DNA of 64,000 nt. Origin: Paraspadella gotoi (Eukaryota > Animalia > Chaetognatha). This document shows, one piece after another, positions 4,145-62,175 of this stretch. The translations under genes were made by a program, and so were the position numbers. Location: contig CM119264.1 in NCBI GenBank assembly GCA_051294375.1, positions 21,733,582 to 21,797,581 of the forward strand, read 5' to 3'. Under the pieces are notes generated by a model. It did not search any database. It was not told the origin of the DNA and saw nothing but the letters and a program-made list of their open reading frames with translations. Each line of letters opens with the position of its first letter. Position 1 is the first letter of the stretch.

Positions 4145-6211
4145 CTTTCGGTCAGAAATAGCGAGGGAGCCGATAAATCTCTAGAGTGTCGCCTGAAGTG
4201 ACGACATCTCCTGAGAGATTCTTTCGATCATCGTCGCTGAAGGCCTTCACGATAGAGACAAACCGAGCGTCGCTGTTGTCACAAGCTACCTCTCCTCGAC
4301 GAGCATCTTACCCACACAACTTACCTTAACCCAACAACCTTACCTTACACAACGTCTTAACGGCTTTAATGCACACAGAGCACTCATGCAACCAGGGCAA
4401 AATGTCATTTCCCACTGCCCAACCCGATTCACCACAAATATCCTCAAAAAAATGATTTTTCATGGCGAAAAAGTGATAAATGAAAAAGGGGTTTTAGGTC
4501 CAAAAAATGTTTCCCATGGCAGTGAATTAAATCCGGGTCGATACTAACAGTCACCCCGGAGCGGCACCCTCTTCACCTCGACTCGTAACTTCGCGAAAAA
4601 AAACTCACCGAAGACATTCACGCTCGAAATCGCGATCACGCGCCGATCACGTGATGGCGATTCGACGCGTTCGGCCCATTCGATCAATCATTCGATTAAC
4701 CGTCACAACTTTTTTTCACTTTTCACCTTCTTTTTGTTCACGAAGTCTTTGAATTCTCTACCAAATCTTTCACAATTTTTTTAAAATTCTATTCTCACGC
4801 CCCTTTTCTACGTATTTAAAAATTCAAAAATAAAACTCTCGAATGGTTTTCTGGGGTGATTTCAATTTAAATTTTATAGTACAAAAATCGTTCAGTAGGA
4901 CGTTTCGAAAGGCACACGGTGAATTGTGGCTCAAAAACAATACTACTATCTAGGAAAAAAGTATATCACATTTTTAATTGAGGATATCTACTCAAAAACA
5001 TATTTGATTTAAAAAAAAATTAGAATGTTTCCAAATCTACATTGAATATTCTCTCAGTAGCTTACTTCATTTTTTCGTTGGTCAAATCTTTTAGAAGTTA
5101 CAGGCTACTTCAAATAAAAAATGGCGAAAAAAATCATATTTAATTTTTTGCCATTTTTGCTATTTAGATATTAGTTTTTATTTCAAATAGAGTTTTTAAT
5201 TTGTTTTATTTTGGTAAAGCATTGCACCTTTTTTTGGTTCAAAAAAGTGATATTATAGCTTTCAAAAAAGAGGGAAAGACGTGGAAACACATTTTACTGT
5301 TATACCTCAATTCGCCGAGGGACGGCATACCAAATATTCAGAATGTTTTAACAATATTTTATATATTTTTTATTTAATAAATACACTTTTCAACAATTAT
5401 GTGATATACTTTTTTCCTAGATAGTAGCATTTTAAAATTACATAAAACTGCCGAAAAAAAAAACTAACCACGATTTTAATTTCTTAAGACTTATTATAAC
5501 CAACCCGAACTCAAGACCTCCACACCACCCCTCCCCAATCCATCACGCCCTCTCGACAAAAACTCACCGTCGAAGTTGAGTCCGATGTTGGCGTTCGATT
5601 CCCCGAAATTGTTCTTGCACGTGACCCTGTAGCGACCCGCGTCGGCCATGGTGACGCTGGCGATCTCCAGCGCGATAACAAACTGGTTTCCGGTCACGTT
5701 GATGAACGTCTCGAATCGGCCTGGTTTGAGAAGGAGAAGGTTTGAGAAGGAGAAGGAGAAGGTTTGAGAACGTTGAGAAGGAGAAGGTTGAGAAGGAGAA
5801 GGTTGAGGAGAAGGTTGAGGAGAAGGTTGAGGAGAAGGTTGAGGAGAGGTTGAGGAGAAGTTTGAGGAGAAGGTTGAGAAGGAGAAGGTTTGAGAACGTC
5901 TCGAATCGGCCTGGTTTGAGAAGGAGTGAGGGGAAAGAAAGTTGGACAGGGAAAACATTCTAGTTGCGAAAGATCGATCCACAGAGGCATTCCCGCATTA
6001 TTTGCGAGAAACTCCAAAGAACGACCGCATTTCAAGACGATGCAAATCAACCAAGCACTCAAGTCACGTCCGATGAAAACACGCTCCCTATCCGCCAGAT
6101 TAACACTCCAGTCACACTCCGGACACATCTCGACGATCCAATGCACGAAGGTTCACCGTCTAATAAATCATAAAACATCAAGAGATCGAAGACGACGATG
6201 GTGGTCTCTCT

Positions 6212-19186: not shown

Positions 19187-21557
19187 TCAAACGACAGGCA
19201 GGATGTCCATGTTCCAGGGTCTCCCTTCCGCGTCGACGGCGTTGAGGCTGCACTGAAGGTCGATCCCGTCGTCGCCGAGGAAGATGCCTTCCAGCTCATT
19301 GTCGGGGACGTCGAAGTAGCGACACTCTCCGCGACCGGAGGCTGAGTCCAGAGTCACGAACACCGTATCTGCGATTGGTGTGGGGGATATATTTTGATAG
19401 AGTGGGTGACAAACAACACTCGTTTTTAGCCGAATCTGCTTACAGCAGATTCCGGCTCTATAATTCACTTAGTCGGTCCGTCGGTCCGCCCCCCCCCCAA
19501 TCTTGTCGGACATTAACTTATATCATGTCAGAACATCGAATTATGATAAATTGTGCATTGTATTATTTTCTCTCTTTTCGTTGCTGAGCGGATATTGAGA
19601 AAGGTTTATTGTTTTGCCAATACAACGATTTTTATTATTATTATTATTATTATATATTATATTATTATATTATTATTATTAAACATGTCCTAATAATAAT
19701 AAAAATCGTTGTATTGGCAAAACAATCAACCTTTCTTGATTAATTATTTAAAAAAAAACGATGTCCGTCCGTCCGTCAGTCCGTCCGTCCCACCATAGCA
19801 AAAAACTCCAATTACTCGTGATTGGATGGATGGATTGGAATTTGAGGGTAGGGAAGTATGTGATAGAGCTGGATATGAAGTTTCGCTGTAATCGTCCGAG
19901 TGGACNNNNNNNNNNTTAATTATTTAAAAAAGAACGATGTCCGTCCGTCTGTCTGTCTGTCCGTCAGTCCGTCCGTCCCACCATAGCAAAAAACTCCAAT
20001 TACTCGTGATTGGATGGATGGATTGGAATTTGAGGGTAGGGAAGTATGTGATTGAGCTGGATATGAAGTTTCGCTGGAATCGTCCGAGTGGACCAGAGTT
20101 GAACTGCAAGAGTGACCTCGATAGCCTTACCCGTGCCGCAAAAGCCTTCGGCGATTACGAGGCCGTTGTCATTCAGATAGAGAAATTCTATGCAGCTGCG
20201 CGGGTGAGCGTATTGACCTGGATAAGGTTTCATCAAATTTAAATTCAATCAGTATACACAGGGGTTATACCCGCTCCAAAAACAGAGAAGGTCACCGACC
20301 CGCTGTTATCACGACGCCGTCCTTTTTGATGATGCTGCCAATGAGCGGAGGCGTGGCCGACTGTTTCCGGCAGTGGAGACCGGAGAAACCGGCGTAGCAT
20401 CTGCAACTGTACAGCATGTCTTGGAGATACGGCCTGGAAGATGCAGGACGGGAATAAAGCGTTAGTTCTGTATTTTTTTAAAGTTTTTTTTGTTGCTATT
20501 GTCCTTCCTGGTTGGATAGACTTGTCTGTAGCGATTGGGACGACAGATTCCGCCTGGGCTGCAGGGTTGCGGCGACAGACTGCACTCGGTAGGCATTCTG
20601 ATCTGAAAAGTTAATATGTCATGATTTAGGACTTAGGATTTAACTTGTGGATTTTGTTGTTGTTGTTGTTCTTTTGTTTTGTTTGTACCTCGCAAGCAGG
20701 AGTCTTCGCCATGTCGAGTATCTCGTCACGGCCGTTGCAGTAGCAATTGAGTTCCGTAACGGAAATCGGGTGGCAGGTGGCGCTACCTGCGATAAATTTT
20801 GTTAGCTTAATTATTACTTTTGCCCCGTTTAGGAATCGTACCGTCTTGTGGACAAAGCGAAGAATCCATACAGAGATTGACTTCGCATCTCCCAAGATTT
20901 TCGATCGGCACAGATGGATCTGAAACGAAAGTAAGGTTGTACTTGGGGTAAGGATTTCTTAGTCGGGTTTCCGCTACGAACATACCCTCGCAGGCGACCT
21001 GCACTTTTCCGGGTGAGTAAATAATGTATCCGTCGTTGCAAATCTTCCTGATCACCGTTCCGAACTCGATCTTCCAGGTTGACTCTTCCTGTTCTAATCC
21101 TACAACAAAAAATTGGTAAATAAGGTTGGTCATTTTCGAAAGTAAGAACATAACTAGGTAAAAACGCATTTCCTTTGCAACCAACGTAAAGAATTACTAC
21201 AACAACAAGTTATAGTAGAAAGTAGTATATTATAATCTCCGCCCTCCTTTATATCTCAGTTCTCACCGAAACTGGGATAAACGATCTCTCCATTTGTATC
21301 CCAGTTGGCGTTCCTCCAAGATTTAGGAAGTCTGCACCGCGCCACGACGCACTCCGCCTCTGAGTGAAAACCACACTCGCCTTGAAAAGAACATTCTCGA
21401 GACAACGACAACAACGACAACGACGGCCACCTTGGTGATTCTTCGGATTGTACATAATGATTCTTCCTTCGGGATCTTGATCGTGACCGCTGAGCCCGAT
21501 GTTGTAGCCGCATTTTAAGTTCAAGGATCTAAAAGAAACAGAAAAGAAAAAAAAAAG

Positions 21558-30559: not shown

Positions 30560-33500
30560 GCCAAATTACCATTCAGTATTCAGATACTTACATTGTCCCC
30601 ACTCACAAACGTCGACCATTTTTTAATGCCCGACTACAATTAAGGCGTAGTGAAAGTTACGTACGAAATTCTAAGGTCAATTATGAACAACATACCATAG
30701 GAACATTAATTTGTAAAAAAAATTAATTTTTAGTTTTTAATTTTCGCAGTAGGCTATATTTATATATGTGAATAAGGCGGCTAAGTGGCGCTGAAGATGA
30801 CTATCCGTAACTCTTTAACCGCCCTCTAGCAGCATATGGAACGGGTCCTGCTTGGAACCAGCGCTTGAGGGTTTTCCACGCCCACCAAGGCGGCTTACGG
30901 CCGTCCTCACACTTCACCGCAGGGTAGGGTACCGGGTTGGGATTGAACCCGGGGCGTACTAGTGGTCATGAGCTGATGGCTTTACTCAATGAGCGCACCG
31001 GGTACAGGACTGAAGGTGTCATGCTTAGAGGCGGGTGAACTTTGCTATGCCCGACTACATGCCCCCCAGATTGTAACCCACCCTGCACTGCTTCCAGTGG
31101 AGGGAGGGGAGCAATCTTCAGCACGTCCATGGGCCTGGAATCAGAAGGGTTGGAATACGCTCAACGGATGGGCTCACCAGTGTGGATAAGGCGCTAAGTG
31201 GGGCTGAAGATGATCTATCCGTAACTTCTTTAACCCCCTCTAGCAGTTATGTGAACGGGTCCTGGGCTTGGAACCAGGCTTGAGGGTTTTCCACGCCCCC
31301 AAGGCGGCTTACGGCCGTCCTCGACAACTTCCCGCCAGGGTAGGTACCGGGTTTGGGATTGAACTGCGGTACCTAGTGGTCATGAGCTGATGGCTTTACT
31401 CAATGAGCCTACCGGGTCAGGACTGAAGGTGTCATGCTTAGAGGCGGGGTGATACTTTGCTATGCCCGACTACATATATAGTACTATCCTTATAAAATAG
31501 AAAAATTTTCAAAATAGGCTTTCTTAATTTTGATTGCAGATTTGAATTCCTCGTCAAAAGTTGATAAAAGAAAATATAAATCATTTTTTAAAAATTCTTC
31601 ATTAAGTGGGTTAAAATTACAAAAACTATATTTAATATATAAAAAGTTAATTTTCAGCTTAAAATATAGTTTTTTCTAATTTTTGGCCCACTAATGAAGG
31701 AATTTTTTAAAAAGAGTTATATTTTTTTTTATCTATTTTTTATGACGAATCCAAATCTGCAAAAAAATCTTAAAAAAAACTGTTTTGAAATTTTAACATT
31801 TATTGGATTAGTACTAGTATAAATATGGCCTACTGCGTAAATTGTAAAATTTATTATAAATTTTTTTTATACATAAATGTTCATTAGTATAATGTTGTTC
31901 GTTCCTCACTTTTAGAATTTTAATTAAAGTTAAATTTAGAAATTTTACTACGCCTTACTACATATATATACTTATTCTGTATCTATTCACTATATTGTTA
32001 CGCTTGACAAGTTGCATGTCAAAATTTGTCAATATATACTATAACTTTAACTCTTTTCGACGGAATTAATCGAAAAATTAATAAGAGGGAACGAATTCAA
32101 AACAGTTATACAATATCGACCGAACTATTGATGATAAAAAACATTCACTCCGAGAGATCTTTTTTTTTCATAGAATAATCTATACCAAGCAACGAGACAA
32201 AATCTTCACTCACACACACTCAAGCAGACTCAAGTAAAACTTATATCTGATTCAGTGATTCAGTGATTCAGTGATTTTAAAGTTCCCAAATGTCTCCTTA
32301 CCAAAGTATTTTTTTTTTCTTGCCTCGACCTTTCCCTTTTCCAAAAAAAAAAAAAACCCCAAAATGCATACATTACGTATTCCTTGTTTTAGTTCGCCTC
32401 CGCTCGGCTTCCGCTCCGCCGGAAACAAGAAATATGTGGGCGGTATAATCATTGGGCGGAAACTCAAAACGGGTATTGGATACGGGTGTATCAGAATCTA
32501 GAGGAGGGGGAGTGGGTTGCGTAACTCAACGCGGCCATAATGCGTTATGAGATTTCGCTTCTGGCGACAGGTGGTTTTGGTTAGCTGCTGAAATAAAACC
32601 TCTTTCGAATGAATTTGGCCAATTTTCCAGCAAATCTAATTTCTAAAAGTATCATCTGATTAAACGAATAATTTTAGATCACCGTTGATGATATCAAATT
32701 AGTATAGAGTTATTAGTTATTAGTTATTAGTTATTAGACCGAATTTCCAGCGACGCTTTTTTCTCCAAATGTCAAAGCGACAAAAGTGAAGATGACCTCG
32801 AGTTTCGACTGACCGATGGAATCCTTCGTAGATGTCGTCGTCGAGACAGAATCCATTTCCCGCGCATTTGTCTTCGTCCCTCGCGTCTCGACATTCGCCG
32901 AGTCGAAGGTCGCACTCAAGGCCTCCCCAGTCTGAAAAGGGGGGGGTAAACTTCCTTAATTTAACATTTTAATAATAAAACGTTCATTTTTATCGTGTTT
33001 TTCGTTCAGCAGTGCAATTTTGTTCAATGGATGCAGAAATAAGAAGTTAAAAGAAGAACAATGATGTGTTTTTGAGGATGACATAATGACAGGATGACAT
33101 ATCCAGACATTCCTTTAAAAAGCAATTATTATTTTATTTAAATAATTAATAAAAGCGTCCTCGATCATAACGAGTGACGCTTTTACTAATCCCCACGATC
33201 CCTCTCTCTGCGTTCTTCCTCTTATCGACTTCCGCTTCTCTCTGTTTGAGCCTTTTCGATTCGCGCTTATGTATTAATCAATAACAAAGGATTCCCACGT
33301 CAATCAAAAATAATGACCCCCTTTTTTCTACCACTCAACCTCCCTACCCCATCGCAGCCTTCTTAGAACCTTAACCATGCTCACGTTTTTCCTCCTAGTA
33401 GCATCTCCTTACCCTCCTGACACAGACACTTGAATCCAGACAAGGTCTTGGTGTCCATCAGGTTGACGGGGACGACTTGACAATCGCTTCCAGGAACGAC

Positions 33501-39493: not shown

Positions 39494-42400
39494 TCAAGCG
39501 GCGACGTCGAAGCCAGAGTTGGATTCGCCCTCTTTTATCGGCGTCGTCGGCGTCGGCGTAGGTCGATAAGACGGCGTCAAACTGAAAATCGTGTTTACGA
39601 TCTCATCAAATATTTATGGGCCTCCATTTTGACATCACTTCTCCCAGAGGCACCTCTGTGCTCAAAATGGAAAAAAAGGTGTCACTGTCATCATAATTTT
39701 CATCATCATTTTTTATTACATAGTTGCGGAACAGAAATTATGTTCTCATACTACATTATGAAATTGGTACAACCAATATAAAAATTATCTATTCATTTAA
39801 TAAATAAGCTATCTTGCCCTGACTTTGAACAGGCTTTGGTGGTTTAAGACCTCCTTATATTACTTCTCAAGGTTTCAAATTTATGTCTTGACAAATTTAT
39901 ATGAAAAATGCGTAAAGAACGAAAAAATAAAAGAAAGGAAAAAAATTAAGCAAGAAAGAAAAACCGTGAGAAAGAGAAAAAAAAAGGAACCAATGCTGTA
40001 GAAGGCCCGTTCCACTCAGAAGAACCGAGGGGCGGAGACTCACTTCGGATTGGATGCAATGTTGGAGAATTGAGACGTGGAGGTGGAGGGGGCGGCGGTA
40101 GAGACGTTGAGACTGTGGTCCTTCCAATATTCCGCCGTCGCCCGTCGCTCGCGCCCGTCCTTTGCCGACAGCTCCATCTTGAAAGCTGCCAACAAACTCA
40201 CTCCGCCTGACAGTAACGGAACGGTCGCGTTAATAATAAGGAATCTCTCGGTTTTCTTTTTTCATTTTTTTCTCTTTTTTTCCTTTTTTTTTCCTCTTTA
40301 GTTTTCTCTCTTTTTGTGTGTGTGCGCGTGCGTGTGTGTGTAAGTTCATCCGCGCGGCTGAGAGACAACAGAGCTCTTCGATGAAGACTTCATTAATATT
40401 TAGGAATCCAGAGGCTTCGTGGTTAACTTTCAATTTTATTTAAAACTCAATGATTTGTTTGTCCTCATTAATTTTTCTGCATGCATCAGCGCTTTCAATG
40501 TAGATTGAAATATAACAAAATTTTAAGGCCAGACATCAAATTTTTCTCCTTGGATAATGATAATCCCCAACAACATAAAACAGTTAAACCCGAAGCACCG
40601 AAAAACCATCATCCGATAAAATTGCAACGTATCCCATTAGCCTCTGGCAAATGCCATCTTCAACATCAACGCTCGGTGACAGACTTCCTCCATTAGCATC
40701 CAATGACGCAACAAACTCGATTCAATAAAAAAATTTTTTTCTCGAACTCATTTTATTTCCCCCCCCCCTTTTTCGGCATTTTTTGGTTTGCTTTCCAAAT
40801 GGCCCTTTCGTTCGACGTCATTCTCCTCTCCACACAAACAAACTGGCATCATTTATTTCATCACAAATTAACAAACGAGGATATCCGTCTAACAATTTCC
40901 CTTCTCGATGGATGATTAATTTGTTTTGTATCTATCACCCTCGCTCTTCAAGCAACGACCTGGATGAGAGTATTGATTTCGAACTTCGGGGACGTTCAAC
41001 TCTCTCTCTCTCTCTCTCTCTTTTCCATTCATTCTTCGTCACAACTTTGAATATCGATTCTTTGGGCCTAAACAAGAGGAGAGTTGATCTACTTTTTTGA
41101 TTTCCTTTTCCCTAATTTTTTAGTCGAATCTGCTTTGCAGATCCCGACTCTATAATTCACTTTGTCGGTTCGTCGGTCCGCCCCCTCAAACTTGTAGGGC
41201 ATTCACTTATATCATGTCAGAACACCGAATTATGATAAATTATGCAAAAAAAATGATGTCCGTCTGTCTGTCCAACTATCCATCCGTCCCACCTTAGCAA
41301 AAAACTCCAATTACTCGTGATTGGATGGATGGATTGGAATGATAGGGAAGTGTGTGATTGAGCTGGATATGAAGTTTCGATGGAATCGTGCGAGTGGAAA
41401 TGAGATTAAATGGAAAAAACAAAAAAATATATTTCACTATTTGAACGCCAATTATTTATGAGTGGATAGGGCAATTGACTTTAAATTTTTTATGTGGGTA
41501 GGAAAGTGTGTGATTAAGCTGGAAATCAAGTTTCGATGTAATCGTCTGAGTGGAAATGAGTTTAAATGGAAAAAAACAAAAAACCTGTTTTACTAATTGA
41601 TTATGCTTCTTTTTCTTTTATATTAAATGTAAATACAAGATGTATTAATTAAGCAGTTAATTAATCAATTAGTCAATTAATCAATAATTAATCTGTTAAT
41701 AATTAATTGATTAATTATTCAATCAATTTATCTATCTATTAATAAATTATTTAATCAATCAATTTATCAATTAATTATTTAATTAATAAATCAATCAAGT
41801 TAATCACTATCGGCTTTTTTGTCGTCATAGCCATCATCGTCGTTGTAGCTTTTGTCATGATCAATAACAAAAAAACCTAAAAACAAACATTTCAGATCAA
41901 ATTAATTAATTGCTTAATTATTTAATTAACTTGAATTGATAAAATAAAATATAATACCGCTAATGATCGTGGGAAGATCCGACATTGTTTGCTCAAACTT
42001 GTTTCTTCCTTAATTCAACGAATGTTCTATGTATATGCTAATTGAAGATAACTAACAACGATTGAACAGGGTCATGGACAATCTGTCAGAGAATCAGCAC
42101 GCAAGTACAGACACCCGAACCTTTTTTTATCTTTTTCGTAATACTTAATTTACCTTTTTTTTATCATTTCTTTATGTTTGCCTTTTTTTCTCACCGGCAA
42201 AAACAGCGAAAATGATGCTGATTATTGCGACTTGGAAAGCCCAACTCTGTTCCTGCAACTCCACCACGACCATTTCTTTTGCGGCATCGGTCCAAGTAGA
42301 GCAATAACTCCTATGAGCGGCCGAGAACACGAGTAGCGAACAAAAGATCAAGACAGCTGCAAAACAATTGTGTGTTTGTTTGTTTGTTTTTATTTAAATA

Positions 42401-47809: not shown

Positions 47810-48290
47810 TGACTTTGGTTTTGTCCGTGCAAACTCATTTTCACTCAATCTGCTCAATCACACACTTTACAACCCACCCACAAAATTTTATATCGATCTA
47901 TCCATTCAATTATGATTAATTAAAGTAATTATGGGTTAAAAATAGTAAAAAGATTCAAGTAAATGTGACTTATATTTTTTCCATTTAAACTCATTTCCAC
48001 TAGCTCGATTCCATCGAAACTTTATCAAGCTCAATCACATACTTTCCTACCCACACACAAAATTTCACTCCAATCCATCCATCCAATCACGAGTAATTGG
48101 AGTTTTTTGCTTAGGGGGACAGACAGACAGACAAACGGATGGACAGACATATTTTTTTCCATAATTTATTATAATTTGATGTTCTGAAATAATTTAAATG
48201 AATGCCCGACAAGATTGAAGGGGCGAGCCGATGGACCGACAAAGTGGATTATAGAGTCGGGATCTGCAGATAAGCAGATCCGACTAAAAA
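47810..48290 (-). mobile_element. Helentron/DINE-1-like element, copy 3
   Basis: Reverse complement of the family at 19423/41116 (CCAATCACGAGTAATTGGAGTTTTT, ACAG repeats, terminal hairpin and A run). Confidence 0.65.
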
Positions 48291-50598
48291 GAGCTTCTAC
48301 TCCGGATAGAATGACGCTGCAGCCCATGCTCTGAAGAGAGGTATTAAAAATTCTAGAAGCCCAAAGGCAACCGACGGTTTGCGATATGATGACTCCTCGC
48401 AGCTCATTGCGTCATAACGGAAACTGAGAGTGGGAAAAGAAGACATAAGCCGCGTCATGCGACAGAGCCTTACGACTTCATAACTCCAGTAAAAACAGTT
48501 AAATAAACTGGCTCATTACATACGTAAGTTCCTGGAATTTGTTTACGAGTTTAATTATTCAAGTTACAATATTAAAAAAGTAAAATTTTTTGTCTTCACA
48601 AACCTACAAAATTCCTCAGCGATAAAAAGAAAAACGTAGACTGCTGACAATGCAAGTATACAATCTGATACTACAAAAATTTGTGTCCGACTTCGCTTAC
48701 AAAAAAGTATAGAGTCTCGGACAACTTAAACCGCAAACAGAAATGAGAAATTGAAAAAAGCCTGTTAGAAGATCCAAAAGTGTCCAACTTATTAGATATC
48801 ACAAGGGCGCTTGATGCCGTCGGTTTGAAAAATTTTATACAGACAACGAATGACAGCGATTATGTAGGAATTGTCATCATAATAACGATAACAACAAAGA
48901 TGACGACGACGACAAAAGTGATTAGGATCGACTAACTCTGGACGAGAGACACTGACACGAAACAATTCTGGGAAATTAAAAAAATGAGCTCGTCAATGTT
49001 GCGGGGGAGGAGTGTTTCGTGGAAAGAAAATGGAGGTAATGAAAAGGGAATTGGAAAGCAGGGATTTTTGTGGAGCGCGAATTGAAAAAAATCATTGATT
49101 TATTCACCTCTGTGGAAAGAAAAGGGTCTACAGGAAATACGAGGGAGTAGTAAAGGCCCATTTTGTCATATGTAAAATTTTGAATTGACATTAATGAACA
49201 ATTATGCTTCCACAGTTCCATCGTCTTTTTGAAATTATATCGACCGTAACTTTTCCAGGCAAAGGTAAACCGAATGAGGAAAATAGGGATCCGGAAAAAA
49301 AAATCAACTAGAAAAGTTAGAAACGAAATAAAATTTACGGCCGAATGGAAACACTGACGCCGGCGACGGCAACGGCCGGCGCCTTTAGGTTTCCTTTGAC
49401 GTCATCGCTCTTTTCTTATTTTTTAATTTTAGTTTCCCAGAAAAGCGGAAAAAACCAATAAGTAAAAAAGACAAGCGTAAGAGAGAGGAGAGAAAGGGGG
49501 GAAAAATTGAAATTTGACTACAGAAAGGAAACAGCGGGAAAAAAATCAATTCGAATTGGCGACTCGTCGAGATAAAAAAAAGTATTTTTTTTCTTTTGCA
49601 AAAAAGTCTTGGCAACAATTCCTCTCACTCAGCCGTTTTCTTCTTTGTTTCATTCGCAGAAGTAGGAACGATTGTTCAACCTTTGCCAATTTATTTTTTT
49701 TTCAGTCGATCGTACGAAATTGAGTAAAACATACTTTTTTAGTTTTAAGGTTTGTTTGTTGTAAATAAAACCCCGACGAAGAAATGCGCCTCACTTCCCT
49801 TCAAGAGACCGGAAAGCGGAATTTGCTGGAGAGGGAATTCTAGAGAGAGAGAGAGAAAACGAGAGCGCTTTCGTGATGTCATTGACATCTAGTCGACCGA
49901 ATAATCCCCAACGTCTAACACGCTTTCTTACTTTTTGAGAAAAAACGAGGAGCAAAATGCGTACAAATCCCTAAAAAGTCTTACGAATCATGTTCATGGA
50001 AAACATAAATTTGGTAAATAAGGTGATTTATATGTAATATTTTACTTTCACCGACTGGAACCGAGTCGGTCGGTTATTTTTCGGGTAACTTTACTATTCG
50101 ACGTCTGAAACCAACTTTAGCTACCACCGGTCAGTGCTTTGTTTTCCCTCTAGCGTCGCGTCTCAGTTTGCGAAATAATATACATTTTTTATTCACTTTT
50201 TTATTTTTTATTTTATTTTATAATAATAATAATTGTTTTAAATTTATTTTAATTACTATTTTAATAAGTTTTCATCAGCGCAAAAACGAATTAATTTGTG
50301 AAACAAATATTTTCACAGACTCTTTCTCTCTCTCTCTCTTCAAACTACAAAGTCGGTGAAAATATGTGTTTTACAAATCAATTCGTTTTTGCACTAATGA
50401 ATTTTTTTATGAAATAAAAGAAACAATTTGATGGTTTACATCGAAGGCGAAACATGTCCGAAATTTGTCTCTTAAAATAAAAAAAACTCGTATTAAGAAA
50501 CAATATTTTTATGTTATATTTTTTAAACGGTTAGCGATTGGGTTAAGGATTAAGGGTGGTTATGGATTTGTAATAAAAAGTTTTTCTACCCTTATAAG

Positions 50599-51090
50599 TA
50601 AAGCGTAGTAAAAATTCTAAATTTAACTTTAATTAAAATTCTACAAGTGAGGAACAAACAACATCATACTAATAAACATTTATGTATAAAAAAATTTTAT
50701 AATAAATTTTACAATTTTACAGATTTGGATTTGTTATGAAAAGTTGATATAAAGAAATATAACTCTTTTTTAAAAATTATTTTATTAAGTTGATCAAATA
50801 TATAAAAAATCTATATTTTAAGCTGAAAATTAAAATTTTATATACTAAATATATTTTTTTTAATTTTTAACCCATTTAATGAAAGAATTTTAAAAATTAT
50901 TTATATTTTCTTTTATCAACTTTTGACGAGGAATTCAAATCTGTAATAAAAATTAAAAAAAGCCTATTTTAAACATTTTCGATATAAAGATAGCCTACTA
51001 CGAAAATTGAACATAAAATAAATTTTTTTTACAAATTAACGTTCACTGATAGTATGTTGTTCATAATTGATATTTAGAATTTTCACTACT
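50599..51090. mobile_element. MITE family A copy (duplicated at ~56480-56995 and ~58063-58630)
   Basis: TAAAGCGTAGTAAAAATTCTAAATTTAAC... is homologous to the reverse complement of 30641-31957 without the TRIM. Confidence 0.75.
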
Positions 51091-51233
51091 TATCAGTATC
51101 TTTGTATCAGTATTTTTGCATAGCGAGATTTTTNNNNNNNNNNNNNNNNNNNNNNNNNNNNNNNNNNNNNNNNNNNNNNNNNNNNNNNNNNNNNNNNNNN
51201 NNNNNNNNNNNNNNNNNNNNNNNNNNNNNNNNN

Positions 51234-53702
51234 CTCCAGTTCGGCCGTTGCCTCTTTCGGCTCTTCAGGAGATGCTGCGACCAGGAGTTTTGGCAGCTTC
51301 GATTTATCCTCTGCACGAGGATCATCGCAAGTTTTGCCTTTTTATTTGGAGAGGCAAAGATCTACCTGTTCAGGGTTCTACCTTCGGTCATGCTAGGCCC
51401 TTGGTTGTTTTCAGGCGACTCGCCCTCTGGTGCCTGGCTTCGTGCGAGAGGGCTTTCGATGTCTGTTCTACATCGACGATATCTTATTCTGGGCACGTCC
51501 ATGGGGAGTGTTTATTCAACACCCGAGTGGCTCTGCAAACTTCTTTCAGAGCAACAAATCTTTTTGGCTTTTTCTAAAGATTTCCGTGGAGATGAACACT
51601 CAAAGAGTGTTTTATTTATTTCAGCCCGAGCAAGCTCGCGGAAGTAAAGGATGCGGGCTCGTTCCTTCCCCCCAGAATCGAGTTTAGTCCTGCTCAGAAC
51701 TTCGAGTTTTGGGTCTTCCAGTGGACGGGGCGCTTCACCTAGGTTGCGCTTCCCCAGCGGAGTTTTCTGTCCTCGTTTTTTGGCTTCATTCCTCATGGAG
51801 GGATCACTCTATCAGCCCATCAGGTTCTTCAGCTCATGGCTGCAGCCTCCCAGGTCTTCCGATTTCCGCTGCAGGTCGCGGGATTCTGCATGATTCTCAA
51901 TCCTGTTATCGTTCGGAGAGGATTTGTGAGAGTTCTCTTCTCGGAAGCTGCGAAGGAGGAACTTCTTTGGATTTCGGATTCTCGATCCAAGGGCTGTTCA
52001 GCACAGTCGACGCCTTCTCCCGGAGAGTTGCACTTCGGAAGTTGACAAACGACGCTCCAATGGAGCTGGGCTTCTTGTTTCACGGAGTCCTTCATCAGGG
52101 AGTTTTGGAGATTGCGTTTACCTTCCCATATAATGCGAAGGAGTTCATGGTTCGCTATAGTTCCTCGTTCTTCGGCGATCGATTTGCGACAGCATCTTCT
52201 GTGGAAGACGGACAGTTTGGTGTTCCTTGCTCGTCTCGCGCTTTCGGAGCCGCTCGCCTTCTTTCCACGAAGTTATGAGAGAATCTCTTCTCTACGCGAT
52301 TCCTCTTCGGGGGTGTTCATGTTCTCAGGGAGATTTCGAGTTGGTGCGGTTCTCGGGGAGAGCAGCAGATCATCCGTTGCGACGAGTCTCTCGTCAGGTG
52401 CCCCTTCTCCTGGAGATGGAAAGCATGCGGAGGGCTCGAGCCTGCAGTCAAGTCTGGGTTTTCGATCGAGCCTTGTTTTTTTTTTTCCTCCTCCCTTTGA
52501 TCCTCGAGTGATCTTCAAGTTGAGGGAGGCAGTGGGGAGTTCTCTAGGATCTTCTGTTGCTGAGGTGCGCCGTCTAGCTTGGTCTCCTTGGTCGACCTGC
52601 CTGGACGACATCGTCAGCTCCTGATCTGCCTAATCGTCTGGAGTGTTATCGGCTGGCGCACGGATCTCAGACGTCAGCAATTCGACTTTCTCTTCTGTCA
52701 AGGAGGGCTTGGAGATTCTCCACTGTTGTCCGTTCGAAAGGGCTTGGAAGTCCTTCGTCTCTTTCCTTCTAGGACGGCTTCTAGGGATAAGCTTTGTGAA
52801 GGATGTGCTGGATTATCACGCCTCTAGTGACAACGGATTGTCCTATAGCCCATCTTTTTGCATAGATCGGCGATTTCTGCGACTTGCCTTTGGTGGGGGT
52901 GCTCCTATCGGTCAGCACCCATTGGTTTGCCGTCTACTCAAAGGAGTTTTTCAGCTACGGCCTCCTTCGCGCCGTGATCTACCAGCTTGGAGTGTGGCTG
53001 CGGTTTGGCGTTTTGATGTGAGCCATTTCGCTATTCACCTTATTGACATTCTTACGCAAGACTACGTTTCTTCTTTTTTTGGCTTGGCTTCCGCAGGCGA
53101 CCTTCTGAATTGGTCTCTCTGCAGATGTGTCCGACTAATTGTTTTGGTTGAGGATCACGTACGTTGTGCTCCAGGCTTCCAAGCGGATCGGATTTCCATC
53201 TTGGCCCTGTTTTCTTTGGATCCTACGTTCTTCGATGGGTCTGGCCTTGCATTCCTGGTTGTCCGTCGACAGTTCTACGGTCCAAATTTCTCTTCTTTCC
53301 CGCGGCGCGCCCATGGACTTTGCTCTCAGCGTTTTTCCGCTCTGATCAAGTCAATCTTAGAGGATGCGGGACATTGGACGCGCTCTGGATCAACTCGCGC
53401 TCATGGCAGTTCACGAGCCTTCGGCTAAAGGAGTGACTCGGACGTCTTCTCTTGCTGGAGATGGTCGGGCGCTCAACTCTCTTCCGCTTATGCGGAGTCG
53501 GCTTTGGGGTTCTTCTCAGCGGGTCTTGTGGATGAGTGATTTCTCTTTCCGATGCATCCTGGAAGATGTAAGTAGAGGGGAGAGGAGGGGGAGTTGCTCC
53601 TTCTGCTTTTCTCTTTGCTCCTTTCTTGTGGGCACACGACATCTGGAACAAAGAGCATGGCCCCCCCCTGGTGGAGAGAGCCATGAAATCCCGGTTCCAC
53701 TT
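51234..53702 (+). mobile_element. Degenerate DIRS1-like tyrosine-recombinase retrotransposon (5'-truncated by gap)
   Basis: Frameshifted motifs in DIRS order: RT (HEDHRKFCLFIWRG..FG; GFRCLFYIDDIL), RNase H-like (TNDA..; YNAKE), MT-like FFFPPPF, and tyrosine recombinase (GQHPLVCRLLKGVFQLRPP..PAWSV; GSTRAHGSSRAF). Confidence 0.85.
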
Positions 53703-53709
53703 GAACCAT

Positions 53710-54148
53710 AAATTAAATTTAAAAAAAAAAAAAATGTTCCGAATTTTATTAAATTTTTTTTTCAGTAGCTTCCTTCATATTTTTGTAGTCAAATTGTTTA
53801 GAAGTTACAGGCAAAAAAATATTGTTACTTCAAATAAAAATGGGAAAATATTGAATATTTTTATTTTGTATTTGGTTATTTGTTTTATTTTATAATTATT
53901 ATTTTTTTTAATTTTTTTTATTTAATAATGTTAGGCTTTGCACTTTTTCGGTTCAAAAAGTGTATTAAAGTCTAAAGAGAAAGATTAAGATGCGAGTTAA
54001 AGACATTTCACTGTATAACAGCATACCCAGATAAAGGCAGGCAGAAGTCGATACAAAGATGGGTATCCAAATATTGAGAATGTTTTACCTATGTTTTATT
54101 TACTTTTATGAATAAATGAATTATGTCATATATTTTTCCTAGATAGTA
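53710..54148. mobile_element. MITE family B partial copy (mirror at ~61003-61500)
   Basis: Shares its body (TCAGTAGCTT..GTCAAAT..TTTAGAAGTTACAGGC) and right TIR (TTTTTCCTAGATAGTA) with 4946-5424. The left end is replaced by the DIRS element. Confidence 0.75.
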
Positions 54149-54199
54149 TCATTTAAAATGATAGGGCGATTGGCCAAGAGTAGAGTAGTAGCCAAAGAG

Positions 54200-55500
54200 G
54201 GGCTTGTAGATCATATTTTGATATGAATTGTTTTGATATTAGGTCCTCGAGCTAACCCTACCAGGTTTTTCAAAGGCGCCTCTCAGTTATTCGCCTCTGG
54301 AAGAAATCTCATCTCCGTAAAACTGCGAACAAATTAGAACCAAACCGGAGACATGTGAAGCGGTAAGTTGTTTTCTATATCATCACAGATGATATAGTAG
54401 TTTTCTTGTTGATCAAAGTAATTTTTATCGTAGCAAGTAGCCATGCCGTTATATTTTTTTTTTATAATTACAGATTCAAGCGTCAGACATTGGCGAATGG
54501 AAAATGAATTCTCGAGTTCGCTTTGGAACAATTTCATTACGTAAAGAGAAAAATTTGGATATTCAACGATCCGAGCTCGTTAAAACGCAGATGTTTTTTT
54601 ACGAAAAATCAGACCGAAATAAATTGAATCATAAGTTTTTTCTCATTTTAAGAGACAGATATAATTTTTTCGTCGCTTCTTTATCTTTATTTTGTTTCTT
54701 TTACGGGATTAGTTTGCTATGATATCTCCTTCGGCAAGTCTTTCGTGTACATTTTTTTAAACTTTGCGTGTCTGATGCTCTCGTTTATGTATTGACATTT
54801 TATTAAATACAAAAAATAAATTACTTCATCAGTCCATCATATATTAAATATTTTGCGACACCTGAAGGACCATATTTTTGTGTGGCGTCGTGGGGGCGGT
54901 ATATCGAGAATAAAGTTTGATTTTCATTCCCTCTTTTATTTGATTTTACGTACTATGTATATTCGACTGGTCAACTAATAATATTTATATTATTTGTAAT
55001 GCAAAATCCTCTTGTTCTCTTTTTCCGTCGATTGACAGCTTCAGCGAACAAGAGGCGCATGACCATATCCTGTCAGTGTGTCAAGCAAATAATTACAGCG
55101 CTGATTCTTTAATTTTGTGATAAATTAAAACGTCGGACAAACGTAAAGAGGGCTAACATTTTGTCTGGTCAATTGGTCATTTGTTTAACATCTCAAAGTG
55201 GTATAGCCTTTTATCAATCTTTTCACTGAAGAATGATGATAATCTGGTATTATTTTCAAGAGTTTTGGTCGTTTTGGTCTAACATCATTAAATAATTTTT
55301 AATCGTGCTTTGAATATAGAGACTTATTTTGTTTATCTTTGTCCCTACTTGTGATTATTGAATAAGACAGATTTATCCCGATCCGATTATGATTTTAGGG
55401 CTTTTTCACGAGCTAATCAGGCAATCTTTTCAAAAACCACTCGAGTCGTAGTCTCTCTCTCTGTAGATACTTAAGAAAGATAGAACAGTTAAGGAACCTG
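54200..55500 (-). mobile_element. Decayed LINE relic (APE endonuclease region); mirror at ~59610-60950
   Basis: Minus-strand fragments VIICLT, NRRKKRTRGFCI and LFSIYRP resemble the DII.lTETW, R...GGGv and iYRPP motifs. Many stops. Confidence 0.4.
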
Positions 55501-58500
55501 TTAAAACAAAAATATAAATCTACTAAAACTCGGGGAATACCGCCCCTTGCATGTACAAACGACTTTCTTCCGGTCGTTGCCTCGTCGGTGCCACGGTGTC
55601 CGTCCTGCCTGGCCCATCTTTATTTTCTGTCGTTGGTCGCATTCCGTCGCATGACCAAAAAGAGTCAATGACTCAGACTTTGGGTATAAATTATCTCGCG
55701 TCGCCTTTCTCCCTCTTTATTTTGCCCAACGACCTCATCGTGCGGACGGGGATGAGGAGAGGATTTTTTCGCGATGGAACTGAGAGCGACGAGCGCCGCC
55801 GCCCGTTGTCCCGGCGTCGTTAAATCCGCGTTTTTTTAACCGGCGTCTAGTTTCGACACTGGCATTCTTTTGCTTGCTTTCAAGAAAAATTTTTTGGTCT
55901 TCATTTCAACATTTATTTTACCTTTTCTTCTTTTTAAACTTTTTCACAAGCTCGACATTTAAGTTGCTGACTTCTGCGACTAATCTTTTGGAAATCAACC
56001 TCACATCAGTCAAACATTTTGAGGAGTGTAAATTGACGTAATAACGTAATGTAATATTTATATTAATTTACAAAAAAAAAGAAGAGATGTCGTTGAAGAC
56101 ATGTCCGTGTTAAAAATTGTGGTTAATAAAAAAATATTAAAGAGCAAGTGCTGCAGATAAAAATGGCGAATAAATTGTTTTATTTTATTTTCTTTCAAAT
56201 TTCGACCCATAATAATAGACATTTTGGTTAAAATATGACATTCACCTTAGGATCTTCCCGGTCTTATGAGCACAGACGTTAAAAAAATGTTCGCTAAAAT
56301 CTTTAGTGAGAATTTTTAGAATATTACCCCAACCACCCTAACCCTAAATACCCTTAACCTAAAATACCCCTAAACGGCTTATTTCTACATTCGCCGACCG
56401 GTTTTTTTTTTAATTTTTATGAGCGATTTATAAAATCTCGCTAATGCAAAATACATGATACAAAGATACTGAGTGAAAAGTAGTGAAAATAGTAGTGAAA
56501 GTGAAGTGTGAAAATTCTAAATATCAATTATGAACAACATACATCAGTGAACGTTAATTTGTAAAAAAAATTTATTTTATGTTCAATTTTCGTAATAGGC
56601 TATCTTTATATCCTTATAAAGTCGAAAATGTTTAAAATAGGCTTTTTTTAATTTTTATTACAGATTTGAATTCCTCGTCAAAAGTTGATAAAAGAAAATA
56701 TAAATAATTTTTTAAAATTCTTTCATAAATGGTTAAAAATTAAAAAAAACTATATTTAGTATATAAAATTTTAATTTTCAGCTTAAAATATAGATTTATA
56801 TATTTGATCAACTTAATAAAATAATTTTTAAAAGAGTTATATTTCTTTATATCAACTTTTCATAACAAATCCAAATCTGTAAAATTGTAAATTTATTATA
56901 AAATTTTTTATACATAATGTTATTAGTATGATGTTGTTTGTTCCTCACTTGTAGAATTATTAAAGTTAAATTTTAGAAATTTTTTACTACGCTTTACTTA
57001 TAAGGGTAGAAACTTTTTATTACAATCCATAATCCACCCTTAATCCTTAACCAATCGCTAACCGTTTAAAAAATATAACATAAAAATATTGTTTCTAATA
57101 CGAGTTTTTTTTATTTTAAGAGACAAATTCGGACATGTTTCGCCTTCGATGTAAACCATCAAATTGTTTCTTTTATTTCATAAAAAAATTCATTAGTGCA
57201 AAAACGAATTGATTTGTGAAACACATATTTTCACCGACTTTGAGATGTTTGAAGAGAGAGAGAGAGAAGAGTCTGTGAAAATATTTGTTTCACAAATTAA
57301 TTCGTTTTTGCGCTGATGAAAACTTATTAAATAGAATTAAAATAAATTTAAAACTATTATTAATATAAAAAAAAAAAAATAAAAAAGTGAATAAAATGTA
57401 TTATATTCGCAAACTGAGACGCGACGCTAGAAGGAAAAAGCACTGACCGGTGGTAGCTAAAGTTGGTTTCAACGTCGAATAAAAGTTACCCAAAAAAAAA
57501 CCGACAACTCGTTCCAGTCGTAAAGTATAAAATATACTTATTAAATCTCAACTTATTTACCAATTATCCATGAACATGATCATAGACTTTAGGTTTGTAC
57601 GAGTCTCGTTTTCTTCAAAAAGTAAGAAAGCGAACTTTCTCAGTGCGAAATTAATATACATTTTTATTCACTTTTTATTTTTTTTTTATTTTATAATAAT
57701 ATAATAGTTTTAAATTATTAATTACTATTTAATAAGTTTCATCAGCGCAATATCTCCCTCCCTGAATTCAATTTGTGAAACAAATATTTTCACATACCTC
57801 TTTCTCTCTCTTCTCTCTTCAAACTTCAAAGTCGGGAAATATGTGTACAATCAATAACAACACCCGTTTTGCTACTAATGAATTTATTGAAAATAAAAGA
57901 TAACAAGTTTTACCGATCAGAGTAACACCTAATGTCTCTAAAAAAAAAAAAACTCGTATTAAGATAAACAATATTTTTATGTAATTTTAAACGGTTAGCG
58001 ATTTGGGTTAAGGATTAAGGGTGGTTATGGATTTGTAATAAAAAGTTTTTCTACCCTTATAAGTAAAGCGTAGTAAAAATTCTAAATTTAACTTTAATTA
58101 AAATTTCTACAAGGTGAGGAACAAACAACATCATTACTAAGTAAACATTTATGTATAAAAAAATTTTATAAATAAATTTTACAATTTTACAGATTTGGAT
58201 TTGTTATGAAAAGTTGTATAAAGAAATATAACTTCTTGTTTTAAAAATTATTTTATTAAGTTTGCATCAAATATATTAAAAAATCTATATTTTAAGCTGA
58301 AAATTAAAATTTATATACTAAATATAGTTTTTTTTAATTTTTAACCCATTTAATGAAAGAAATTTTTAAAAATTATTTATTATTTTCTTTTAGCAACTTT
58401 TTGGACGAGGATTCAAAATTCCTGTAATAAAAAATTAAAAAAAAGCCTTATTTTAAACATTTTTCGACTTATATTAAAGGATATAAAGGATAGCCTATTA

Positions 58501-61500
58501 CGAAAATTTGAACATAAATAAATTTTTTTTACAAATTAACGTTCAACTGATGGTATGTTGTTCATAATTGATATTTAGAATTTTCACTACTTTTCACTAC
58601 TTTTCACTACTAATTTTCACTACTTTTCACTACAGTATCTTTGTATCAGTATTTTTGCATAGCGAGATTTTTATAAATCGCTCATAAAAATTAAAAAAAA
58701 AACCGGTCGGCGAATGTAGAAATAAGCCGTTTAGGGGTATTTAGGGTTAAGGGTATTTAGGGTTAGGGGTGGTTGGGGTAATATTCTAAAAATTCTCACT
58801 AAAGATTTTAGCGAACATTTTTTTAACGTCTGTGCTCATAAGACCGGGAAGATCCTAAAAGGTGAATGTCATATTTTAACAAAATGTCTATTATTATGGG
58901 TCGAAATTTGAAAGAAAATAAAAATAAAACAATTTATTCGCCATTTTTATCTGTAGCACTTGCTCTTTAATATTTTTTATTAACCACAATTTTTAACACG
59001 GACATGTCTTCAACGACATCTCTTCTTTTTTTTTGTAAATTAAATAAAATATTACATACGTATGTACGTCAATTTACACTCCTCAAAATGTTTGACTGAT
59101 GTGAGGTTGATTTCCAAAAGAATAGTCGCAGAAGTCAGCACTTAAATGTCGAGCTTGTGAAAAAGTTTAAAAAGAAGAAAAGGTAAAATAAATGTTGAAA
59201 TGAAGACCAAAAAATATTTTCTTGGAAAGCAACGCAAAGAATGCCAGTGTCGAAACTAGACGCCGGTTAAAAAAACGCCGGATTTAACGACGCCGGGACA
59301 ACGGGCGCGCTCGTCGCTCTCGTTCCATCGCGGAAAAATCCTCTTCCTCATCCCCGTCCCGCACGATGGTCGTTGGGGCAAAATAAAGAGGGAGAAAAAA
59401 GCGACGCAGAAAATTTAAAAATCACAACCCAAAGTCTGAGTCATTGACTCTTTTTGGTCATGCGACGGAATGCGACCAACGACAGAAAATTAAAGATGGG
59501 CCAGGCAGGACGGCACCGTGGCACCGACGAGGCAACGACCGGAAGAAAGTCGTTTGTACATGCAAGGGGCGGTATTCCCCGAGTTTTAGTAGATTTTAGT
59601 TTTTGTTTTAACAGGTTCCTTAACTGTTCTATCTTTCTTAAGTATCTACAGAGAGAGAGACTACGACTCGAGTGGTTTTTGAAAAGATTGCCTGATTAGC
59701 TCGTGAAAAAGCCCTAAAATCATAATCGGATCGGGATAAATCTGTCTTATTCAATAATCACAAGTAGGGACAAAGATAAACAAAATAAGTCTCTATATTC
59801 AAAGCACGATTAAAAATTATTTAATGCATTGTCCTAAGACCAAAACACAAAACTCTTGAAAAATACCAGATTTATCATCATTCTTCAGTGAAAAGATTGA
59901 TAAAAGGCTATACCACTATGAGATTGTTAAACAAATGACCAATTGACCAGACAAAATGTTAGCCCTCTTTACGTTTGTCCGACGTTTTAATTTATCACAA
60001 AATTAAAGAATCAGCGCTGTAATTATTTGCTTGACACACCTGACAGGATATGGTCCATGCGCCTCTTGTTCGCTGAAGCTGATCAATCGACGGAAAAAGA
60101 GAACAAGAAGGATTTTGCATTACAAATAATATAAATATTATTAGTTGACCAGTCGAATATACATAGTACGTAAAATCAAATAAAAAGAGGGAATGAAATC
60201 AAACTTTATTCTCGATATACACCGCCCCCACGACGCCACACAAAAATATGGTCCTTCAGGTGTCGCAAAATACGTTAATTTTTTAATGATGGACTGATGA
60301 AGTAATTTATTTTTTTTTGTATTTAATAAAATGTCAAATACATAAAACGAGAGCATCAGACACAGCAAAGTTTTTAAAAAAATGTACCACGAAATAACAA
60401 AAAGACTTGCCGAAGGAGATATCATAAGCAAACTAATCCCGTAAAAGAAACAAAATAAAGATAAAGAAGCGACGAAAAAATATATCTTGTCTCTTAAAAT
60501 GAGAAAAACTTATGATTCAATTTATTTCGGTCTGATTTTTTCGTAAAAAAACATCTGGCCGTTTTCAACGAGCTCGGATCGTTGAATATCCAAAGTTTTC
60601 TTCTTTACGTAATGAAATTGTTCCAAAGCGAACTCGTAGAATTCATTTTCCATTCGCCAAATGTCTGACGCTTGAATCTGTAATTATAAAAAAAAAATAA
60701 CGGCATGCTACTTGCTACGATAAAAATTTACTTCTGATCAACAAGAAAAACTACTATATCATCTGTGATGATATAGAAAACAACTTACCGCTTCTACTGT
60801 CTCCGGTTTTGGTTCTAATTTGTTCGCAGTTTTACGGAGATGAGATTTCTTTCCAGAGGCGAATAACTGAGAGGCGCCTTTGAAAAACCTTGGTAGGGTT
60901 AGCTCGAGGACCTAATATCAAAACAATCATATCAAAATATGATCTACAAGCCCTCTTTGGCTACTACTCTACTCTTTGGCCAATCGCCTATCATTTAAAT
61001 GATACTATCTAGGAAAAAGTATATGACATAATTCATTTATTCAATAAAAAGTAAATAAAACATAGGTAAAACATTCTCAATATTTGGTATACCCATCTTT
61101 GGTATCGACTTCTGCCTGCCTTTATCTGGGTATGCTGTTATACAGGAAATTGAGGTATGACAGTGAAATGTCTTTTAACATCTTTAACGCAATTCTTATC
61201 AGCCCATCTTTCCTTCTTTTCTGAACTTTAATAACACTTTTTGAACCAGAAAAAGGTGCAAAGCCTTTAACATTATTAAATTAAAAAAATATTAAAAAAA
61301 TAATTATTTAAAATAAAAACAAATAACCAAATACTAAAAATAATAAAAAATTCAATATTTTTTTCCCATTTTTTATTTGAAGTAACAATATTTTTTTGCC
61401 TGTAACTTCTAAACAATTTGACCTACAGAAAAATAGAAGGAAGCTACTGAAAAAAAATTTAATATAAATTCGGAAACATTTTATTTTTTTTTAAATTAAT

Positions 61501-61602
61501 TTATGGTTCNNNNNNNNNNCTAGATAGTACAATATAAAAATATAATCATCTTATATCATATATCAATAGGGCAGAAAGTATTAACCTTGTGTTGTATAGA
61601 TC

Positions 61603-61870
61603 TGTGGATAAGGCGCTAAGTGGGCTAAAGACTATCAGTAACTTCTGTGCCCCCTCAGCAACAATGGAACGGGTCCTGGGCTTGGAACGAGGCTTGAGGG
61701 TTTTCCACGCCCCCAAGGCGGTTTACGTCCGTCCTCACACTTCCCGCAGGGTAGGTACTGGGTTGGGATTAAACCGAGTGGTCATGAGCTGATGACTTTA
61801 CTCAATGAGCCACCGGGTCACGACTGAAGGTGTCATTCTTATAGGCGGGGTGAACTTATGCCCGACTACA
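61603..61870 (-). mobile_element. Solo LTR of the tRNA-bearing TRIM family
   Basis: TGTGG...CTACA, homologous over its full length to the LTRs at 30767/31181, flanked by a 4-bp TSD (GATC at 61599-61602 and 61871-61874). Confidence 0.9.
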
Positions 61871-62175
61871 GATCCTCACTCTATTTCCAGAAGACAACAC
61901 TAACATCCCTCTGCCCATTACAGTATTAAATATGAAATAAATAATAATTAAATCTAATACTTATGAGAAATATATTAAACTTTTATATTCATTTTGAAAT
62001 TCATCTAATTTAGTCTAATAAATAAAAACAATTACTAATCTTGCACTTCACTAAATCAGCAGCCATCAAGTTTTTTTGGCAACACTTTAGAAATACTAAG
62101 CCTTCATGAATCTATCTTACTCTAAAAATTATAACGAACATGAACGGGAATTTTCGATTGCACAATTTAACGAAC

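Follow-up and report, generated by a model that had tools for sequence, protein, structure and literature searches.

A Helenus-type miniature LTR element with a tRNA-derived promoter segment and a twister-like module in each LTR of the chaetognath Paraspadella gotoi

Introduction

[quoted passage not shown] Here we describe a 708-bp element of this type in a 64,000-nucleotide stretch of the Paraspadella gotoi genome (assembly GCA_051294375.1, contig CM119264.1, positions 21,733,582 to 21,797,581), referred to as the window, in which all position numbers are counted. Each LTR carries A and B boxes followed by a core resembling the twister ribozyme, which a preliminary description of the window had overlooked in every LTR. 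We estimate a probability of about 0.5 that the element acts as a Pol III-driven LTR retrozyme, with predicted cutting at this core.

The element resembles Helenus in being short and non-coding, in having A and B boxes in both LTRs with no tRNA fold, a putative PBS, a putative polypurine tract (PPT) and solo LTRs, and in its animal-type 4-bp TSD, and its length lies inside the Helenus range of 311-1263 bp. It differs in having the twister-like module where most published LTRs, by eye, have a U run right after the tRNA part, and in its longer U5. The preliminary description had proposed a Pol III-type-promoter TRIM with a Gypsy-type 4-bp TSD, possibly a new family; the class holds, whereas its novelty as a kind does not, Helenus having already been described (PMC10886601). 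At the family level, the PBS motif has no match in the supplement of that paper, and on this basis the present family looks absent from the published set. The paper contains no mention of twister and has ‘ribozyme’ in a reference title only. We regard the element as a new member of Helenus as a TRIM, set apart by its twister-like module. Ajax, named in the preliminary description as a molluscan tRNA-bearing TRIM, is of another kind: its LTR sequence derives from 5S rRNA and it comes from nemerteans (ribbon worms) (PMC10886601). Our element gave no Rfam 5S match, and its TSD is 4 bp, against 5 bp in Ajax.

Plant LTR retrozymes (Cervera 2016, PMC4918200) are likewise non-coding and TRIM-like, with a self-cleaving motif in each LTR (predicted here), PBS and PPT (putative here), 4-bp TSD and Gypsy-type mobilisation (probable here). 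They differ in host and ribozyme, being plant elements with type III hammerheads where ours is an animal element with a twister-like core; a tRNA-type internal promoter is not mentioned for them in the portion of PMC4918200 covered here, and their circles are demonstrated and stably folded, whereas ours is predicted and not unusually structured. An Rfam search of the LTR copies at E ≤ 10 gave no match to the hammerhead by which LTR retrozymes are defined. Twisters in retroelements have been reported from non-LTR Perere-3/RTE (PMC8501958). These T-variants (Liu 2021, PMC8501958) are similar in placing a twister with weak or absent P1 in an animal retroelement, but that element is autonomous, the twister processes its 5' end, and the layout is type P1 with a 4-bp P2. 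Schistosoma SINE-like repeats (PMC6765202) also combine a Pol III promoter with a ribozyme, a hammerhead, and their cleaved unit has the promoter at its 3' end; they are tandem and non-LTR, and a lone copy is left without its promoter, which an LTR layout would restore.

Anatomy and insertion sites of the element

The element and its relative in the window comprise the following features.

30767..31474, minus strand: full-length non-coding TRIM, 708 bp (self-BLAST and LTR alignment)
31181..31474, minus strand: 5' LTR, 294 bp, TG..CA (LTR alignment)
30767..31059, minus strand: 3' LTR, 293 bp, TG..CA (LTR alignment)
31165..31179, minus strand: PBS-like site TGGTGAGCCCATCCG, starting with TGG, 1 base past the 5' LTR
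31062..31067, minus strand: PPT-like G6 run, short, ending 2 nt ahead of the 3' LTR
30763..30766, no strand: left TSD, TATA
31475..31478, no strand: right TSD, TATA
61603..61870, minus strand: solo LTR, 268 bp, TG..CA, no PBS after it (BLAST within the window)
61599-61602 and 61871-61874: TSD of the solo LTR, GATC

BLAST and LTR alignment upheld the boundaries given in the preliminary description, and the PBS-like and PPT-like sites named there were located on the minus strand. The two LTRs enclose an interior of 121 bp, the element has a GC content of 56%, and its lack of coding capacity is borne out by longest ATG open reading frames of 48-66 aa. When the element was searched against the window, BLAST returned itself, its second LTR and a single further copy at 61603-61870. 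This is the solo LTR reported previously, and its GATC duplication is clean. TG..CA termini were found in all three LTR copies, and both insertions with two flanks in the window have a 4-bp TSD. For the full copy the TATA duplication sits within a TA run and is ambiguous by itself, its length being 2, 4 or 6 bp. Most of the contigs that bridge the flanks leave out 712 bases (the best-supported row has 3, 8 and 2 contigs in three of four runs, while one row of 2 contigs skips 709 bases). As 712 equals 708 + 4, these empty-site joints favour a TSD of 4 bp, in agreement with the original proposal.

Such an LTR-interior-LTR arrangement might be mimicked by a non-LTR retrozyme in tandem or by a pseudo-LTR fragment of Penelope, given that animal retrozymes are tandem and Penelope-related and that just two insertions with both flanks were inspected. 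We consider this very improbable: the TG..CA ends are precise in three of three copies, a TGG-starting PBS lies 1 base past the LTR, a PPT is present, the solo LTR has a clean 4-bp duplication and the empty-site joints span 712 bases, whereas the animal non-LTR retrozymes described have no LTR, PBS or PPT and longer TSDs. The TRIM was probably moved by a Gypsy element; no autonomous Gypsy with a matching PBS was recognised within the 64-kb window.

Aligned with each other, the 5' and 3' LTRs of the full copy show 7 mismatches and 23 gap columns. Several of the indels are missing from most of the short-read contig depth and are therefore either private to this copy or assembly errors. Between 461 and 5,457 contigs per run aligned to the element and its repeat flanks, and 236-2,398 per run to the twister part alone in three host runs; these numbers indicate a repeated family and do not provide a copy number. 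Two biofilm runs contributed small shares of the contigs, one of them only 2. None of the sequencing runs is catalogued as RNA, although one is a presumed RNA run. An 18-nt family motif also occurred at 21 loci in metagenome contigs and 2 in viral contigs, but none of the 23 is similar beyond 24 bases, and all are therefore chance matches.

The TRIM is inserted into an AT-rich repeat (30647-30765 and 31479-31959), of which uninterrupted copies lie near 50.6-51.1, 56.5-57.0 and 58.1-58.6 kb. Exons encoding EGF repeats lie on either side of the TRIM, which is probably intronic.

The tRNA-derived segment and transcription signals

31346..31418, minus strand: tRNA-derived segment of the 5' LTR (A-box core 31408-31399, B box 31365-31355, CAU-type loop 31386-31380)
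30930..31003, minus strand: tRNA-derived segment of the 3' LTR (A-box core 30994-30985, B box 30949-30939)

The A and B boxes are spaced as in a tRNA and lie on the same strand as the PBS and PPT, as the preliminary description had said. Its tRNA-like fold could not be recovered: ARAGORN predicted no tRNA gene in the window, Rfam tRNA models at E ≤ 10 had no match on the LTR copies, RNAfold produced no cloverleaf for the LTR, and at the gathering level no Rfam family matched anywhere in the window. Compared with the box consensus (A box TRGCY..YGG, B box GGTTC; PMC10886601), the solo copy has the TGGCT A-box start and the 3' LTR the GGTTC B box, with the YGG end of the A box unmatched. The exact A-box-core/B-box pattern was found in one of three LTR copies and in none of 100 shuffles. 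By eye, the tRNA-like part (30966-30994, minus strand, and its equivalents) is like that of several rust-fungus Helenus elements around the CAU-type loop, and the two probably share the same parent tRNA type.

The transcribed strand of the element has no run of three or more U, compared with nine on the opposite strand, an absence that is weakly unusual (p = 0.03). Nine of the first 10 letters of the putative PBS match the tRNA-Trp type, the nearest published PBS (PMC10886601, Fig. S2).

A twister-like module in each LTR

31255..31335, minus strand: type-P5 twister-like module of the 5' LTR; predicted cut U31311/A31310; copy-specific indels in the P2 3' strand
30841..30920, minus strand: twister-like module of the 3' LTR; predicted cut U30897/A30896; copy-specific indels in P4/L4
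61669..61747, minus strand: twister-like module of the solo LTR, laid out by manual pairing
61747-43/61673-69, minus strand: P5 of the solo module
61740, 61738-37/61722-20, minus strand: P2 of the solo module, bulge at 61739
61736-32, 61725-23 and 61719-18, minus strand: GAGGA, UAA and GC of the solo module
61731/61726, minus strand: P1 of the solo module, a single pair
61717-10/61700-693, minus strand: P3 of the solo module
61692-89/61678-75, minus strand: P4 of the solo module, one private mismatch; L4 at 61688-79

In each LTR the module starts about 20 nt past the B box, on the transcribed strand. In our hand layout, a 5-bp P5 is followed by a P2 strand, GAGGA, a 6-nt linker, UAA, three bases and GC, and then by an 8-bp P3 hairpin, P4 enclosing the loop GUUCCAAGCC, and the second P5 strand. 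Complements for both pseudoknots are present, T1 with three Watson-Crick pairs and T2 with two, and P4 has four pairs in the 5' LTR and in about 98% of the contig depth. The module therefore shares with type-P5 twisters (RF02684) the order of strands, the conserved GA, UAA, GC and L4 letters (L4 is damaged in the 3' LTR copy), the T1 and T2 complements, P4 and the optional P3 and P5; it differs in a P1 of one pair plus a palindrome, in a P2 of three pairs plus a bulge, and in scoring below the family cut-off.

In a permissive Rfam scan (E ≤ 10), the only match over the element was Twister-P5, on the strand of the promoter (18.2 bits, E = 0.44). A twister core pattern matched two of the three LTR copies, nothing else in the 64 kb and none of 100 shuffles; a pairing descriptor requiring P2, P4, T1 and the P1 pair, and tolerating one P4 mismatch and one P2 bulge, again matched two of three copies and nothing else, with 12 hits in 100,000 shuffles. 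As controls we used viral-contig matches to the canonical P5 pattern, found at no fewer than 123 loci (at least 106 distinct, at least 39 with P4 and P2). From the 39 among the matches listed, 34 motifs were kept, 5 being dropped as imperfect or duplicate. The combination of GAGGA-C..G-UAA with the loop seen here is shared by 24 of these 34 listed P5 twisters, and 8 of the 9 listed control motifs that were tested reach the Rfam cut-off. A linker as short as ours occurs in one of the 39 listed motifs, and that motif misses the cut-off.

Three viral loci may be noted: L136:55-104 (minus strand) is a P5 twister-like motif with a 6-nt P1 linker scoring below the Rfam cut-off, L029 has a 31.5-bit match to our custom covariance model close to a second motif, and L111 contains two P5 twisters 330 nt apart. 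Two other layouts were rejected. A type-P1 reading via a downstream GAGGG gave no P1-type descriptor match, and the GAGGG site is variable among the loose-end consensus rows; an alternative P2 register is broken by one common variant. The custom covariance model itself, built from the 34 listed viral motifs, was discarded as a classifier for not discriminating.

Variation was assessed in contigs of the three host runs, whose depth gives a coarse gauge and in which variants carry no phase. Of 62 core positions, 5 vary at 5% or more in both DNA runs. Four of these lie among the 14 unpaired positions and one among the 48 that are paired or conserved (Fisher p = 0.008), and the lone variable constrained position alternates between G·U and A-U, so that pairing is kept. 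Contigs from four runs cover promoter and twister together, which means that the two move together. We believe that the module very probably descends from a twister ribozyme. Nonetheless, given its P2 and P1, the lack of a hammerhead and cleavage that is only predicted, we do not class the element as a member of either the twister or the retrozyme group.

Departures from the twister consensus and competing explanations

A number of observations weigh against an active ribozyme. The 18.2-bit score is far under the 37.6-bit gathering cut-off, and Rfam has no twister match on the solo copy. The pairing descriptor was loosened, and the bulge assigned, post hoc with the sequence in view, and a strict descriptor matches none of the window copies. 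With the custom covariance model there is one significant match, covering the P4/L4 hairpin only, and pattern-selected viral controls score at least as high as the element. P1 retains a single pair, with a 4-nt loop. P2 consists of three pairs plus a bulge, its 5' strand being 3 nt instead of 4 across the family (no insertion there reaches 2% of contig depth), and an altered number of P2 pairs might upset the twister active site (PMC5408937). None of 34 viral matches with a 3-nt P2 strand forms P2, hence we found no natural precedent for the short P2. None of the three window copies of the module is intact, each having private damage, part of which is probably assembly error. Excluding the bulge, the Fisher test weakens to p of about 0.03 (hand calculation), and the low core variation can also stem from the recent spread of a few masters. 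The absence of U4 from the transcribed strand is unremarkable (p = 0.53). Regarding folding, the lowest-energy structure holds P2 in none of the three window copies, compared with 32 of 34 viral twister controls among the matches listed, and in two of the three copies a hairpin of about -10 kcal/mol absorbs GAGGA, closing over the cut site. Finally, the predicted 414-nt circle (from an indel-bearing copy) shows no excess of structure over shuffles (z = -0.15; 61% of it is paired), when metazoan retrozyme-type RNAs are reported to be more than 70% paired.

Much of this would be expected of an ordinary Helenus TRIM carrying a dead twister relic and moving by standard LTR reverse transcription of Pol III read-through RNA. 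In that case, an LTR would have picked up a twister-bearing piece, a SINE or a Penelope-like element being conceivable donors, and activity would have ended when one P2 nucleotide and the P1 loop were lost. The non-canonical P2 and P1, the sub-threshold Rfam score, the competing hairpin and the unstructured circle all fit this scenario, as does the lack of a ribozyme motif in most of the published Helenus LTRs inspected (PMC10886601). What it fits less well is that nowhere in the LTR is variation lower than in the core, whose flanks on both sides differ between subfamilies, that common variants leave the fold intact, and that every catalytic-core letter is retained. We regard a dead relic as a serious possibility, with about one chance in three in its favour.

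The collapsed P1 may itself have a replacement. The linker and its neighbours form a perfect 8-nt palindrome in both LTRs, standing where P1 would be, near-invariant in the short-read contigs and with a predicted self-duplex of -14.1 kcal/mol; the palindromic form of the module has no match in genome or viral contigs. P1 can be deleted from a twister without loss of cleavage in vitro (PMC5408937), and Penelope hammerheads with short palindromic stems cleave as dimers (PMC6765202). By analogy, dimer cleavage via a palindromic P1 is one hypothetical way around the competing fold and the collapsed P1, and it stays hypothetical given that deleting the loop of a hairpin yields such a palindrome automatically. 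The segment could instead have been kept to serve a different structural purpose, RNA dimerisation, say, or packaging via the palindrome and hairpins, its likeness to twister being secondary or accidental, and both the near-invariant palindrome and the predominance of alternative hairpins in the predicted fold agree with this. However, the ordered core letters, both pseudoknot complements and a letter set common to 24 of 34 listed viral P5 twisters make accident unlikely, and the variant that is common at 61722 preserves the pair in the twister P2 but disrupts one in the competing hairpin. We therefore find another structural role improbable.

Proposed mechanism

The anatomy and the motif are observed, and every step beyond the DNA is proposed, following the retrozyme cycle model of PMC4918200, PMC7229834 and PMC7761336. 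Pol III would initiate at the 5' LTR's tRNA-like segment, traverse the whole element, which has no U3 run of its own, and stop at a U run in the flank (30722 here). In both LTRs the twister would then cleave its U|A site (31311/31310 and 30897/30896), a step that probably requires the two copies to pair through the 8-nt palindrome that replaces P1. This double cut would free a 414-nt unit RNA containing U5, PBS, PPT and promoter, which a host ligase would circularise as for plant retrozymes. With a host tRNA at the PBS as primer, the reverse transcriptase of a Gypsy element would restore the two LTRs. Insertion of the DNA by the Gypsy integrase would create the 4-bp duplication. Alternatively, mostly the 3' site might be cut, with the ribozyme substituting for the ordinary U-run terminator of Helenus and leaving a terminal repeat of about 107 nt for normal strand transfer; this form takes somewhat less than half of the weight that we give to the retrozyme reading. 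Functional cleavage, in either form, seems to us evenly balanced. The fully specified version, an animal LTR retrozyme with a tRNA-derived Pol III promoter and an active twister that cuts only when LTR copies pair via a palindromic P1, is possible but doubtful.

Other features of the window

Exons of a twitchin/unc-89-like immunoglobulin-domain protein lie at 1.2-6.5 kb (minus strand), with best matches to twitchin/unc-89-like proteins of several phyla at up to 55% identity, and exons of an EGF-repeat protein at about 22-36 kb (minus strand). An inverted duplication of 3.9 kb at 90% identity, with nested repeats (53703-57419 versus 57638-61509; 49921-51103 versus 56504-58603), has N gaps nearby at 51134-51233 and 61510-61519, and is either a foldback element or an assembly artefact. 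Between 51234 and 53700 there are several overlapping frames of 100-264 aa. One stretch, 52634-53428, is reminiscent of DIRS-type recombinase sequence, but Pfam and a homologue search gave nothing. Two further dispersed repeat families with short internal duplications occur at 19423-20109, 41117-41600 and 47852-48290, and at 5004-5436 matched with 53717-54158 and 60994-61499.

A possible parallel in wasps and implications

To our eye, the LTRs of Helenus-2_SyJa and Helenus-2_SyUm, from the wasp Synergus, contain what is presumably a type III hammerhead. The candidate lies right after the tRNA-like part, in the position that the twister-like module takes in our element, and has a 12-nt loop-loop complement (by eye). 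Both sequences are in DataS1 of PMC10886601, where the hammerhead core word occurs five times in the supplement and has a hammerhead context, by eye, in these two only; the candidate goes unremarked in the portion of the paper covered here. The SyJa PBS is listed there as the Trp type, the published type nearest to the present PBS. Two short wasp U5 motifs also recur in two of our three LTR copies, agreeing at 13 of 15 and at 11 of 14 letters. Their window-wide counts are within chance, however (15 and 10 of 100 shuffles), which makes them no more than a lead to shared ancestry.

In our literature search, outside which lay subscription journals, Repbase and Dfam, no twister in an LTR, Helenus ribozyme or animal LTR retrozyme was described. 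Among the papers covered, LTR retrozymes come from plants and contain hammerheads, the retrozymes of animals have no LTRs, and the twisters of retroelements belong to non-LTR elements. LTR retrozymes are still assigned mainly to plants in a 2026 preprint (10.64898/2026.07.22.740005), type III hammerheads of insects are cited as unpublished in a 2020 review, and the portions of PMC12029980 and PMC13570524 covered here contain nothing contradicting the novelty of a twister-bearing LTR.

Since 2024 a TRIM with a tRNA promoter has by itself counted as ordinary, which does not hold for one with an LTR ribozyme. Were the motif to cut, twister would gain a new biological role. Such cutting would also show how the RNA of an LTR element transcribed by Pol III can be given a defined end in the absence of a terminator, which would stop transcription in the 5' LTR as well. 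It would further provide a natural case of a twister that is active despite a shortened P2, a geometry believed to be constrained. If the wasp hammerhead is real, those elements would be animal LTR retrozymes, and the candidate already suggests that ribozyme-bearing TRIMs sit unrecognised in repeat libraries. Should both hold, the present element and the wasp families would define a class of Pol III-promoter TRIMs in which different ribozymes have been recruited independently to the same LTR position, yielding unit-length or circular RNA templates.

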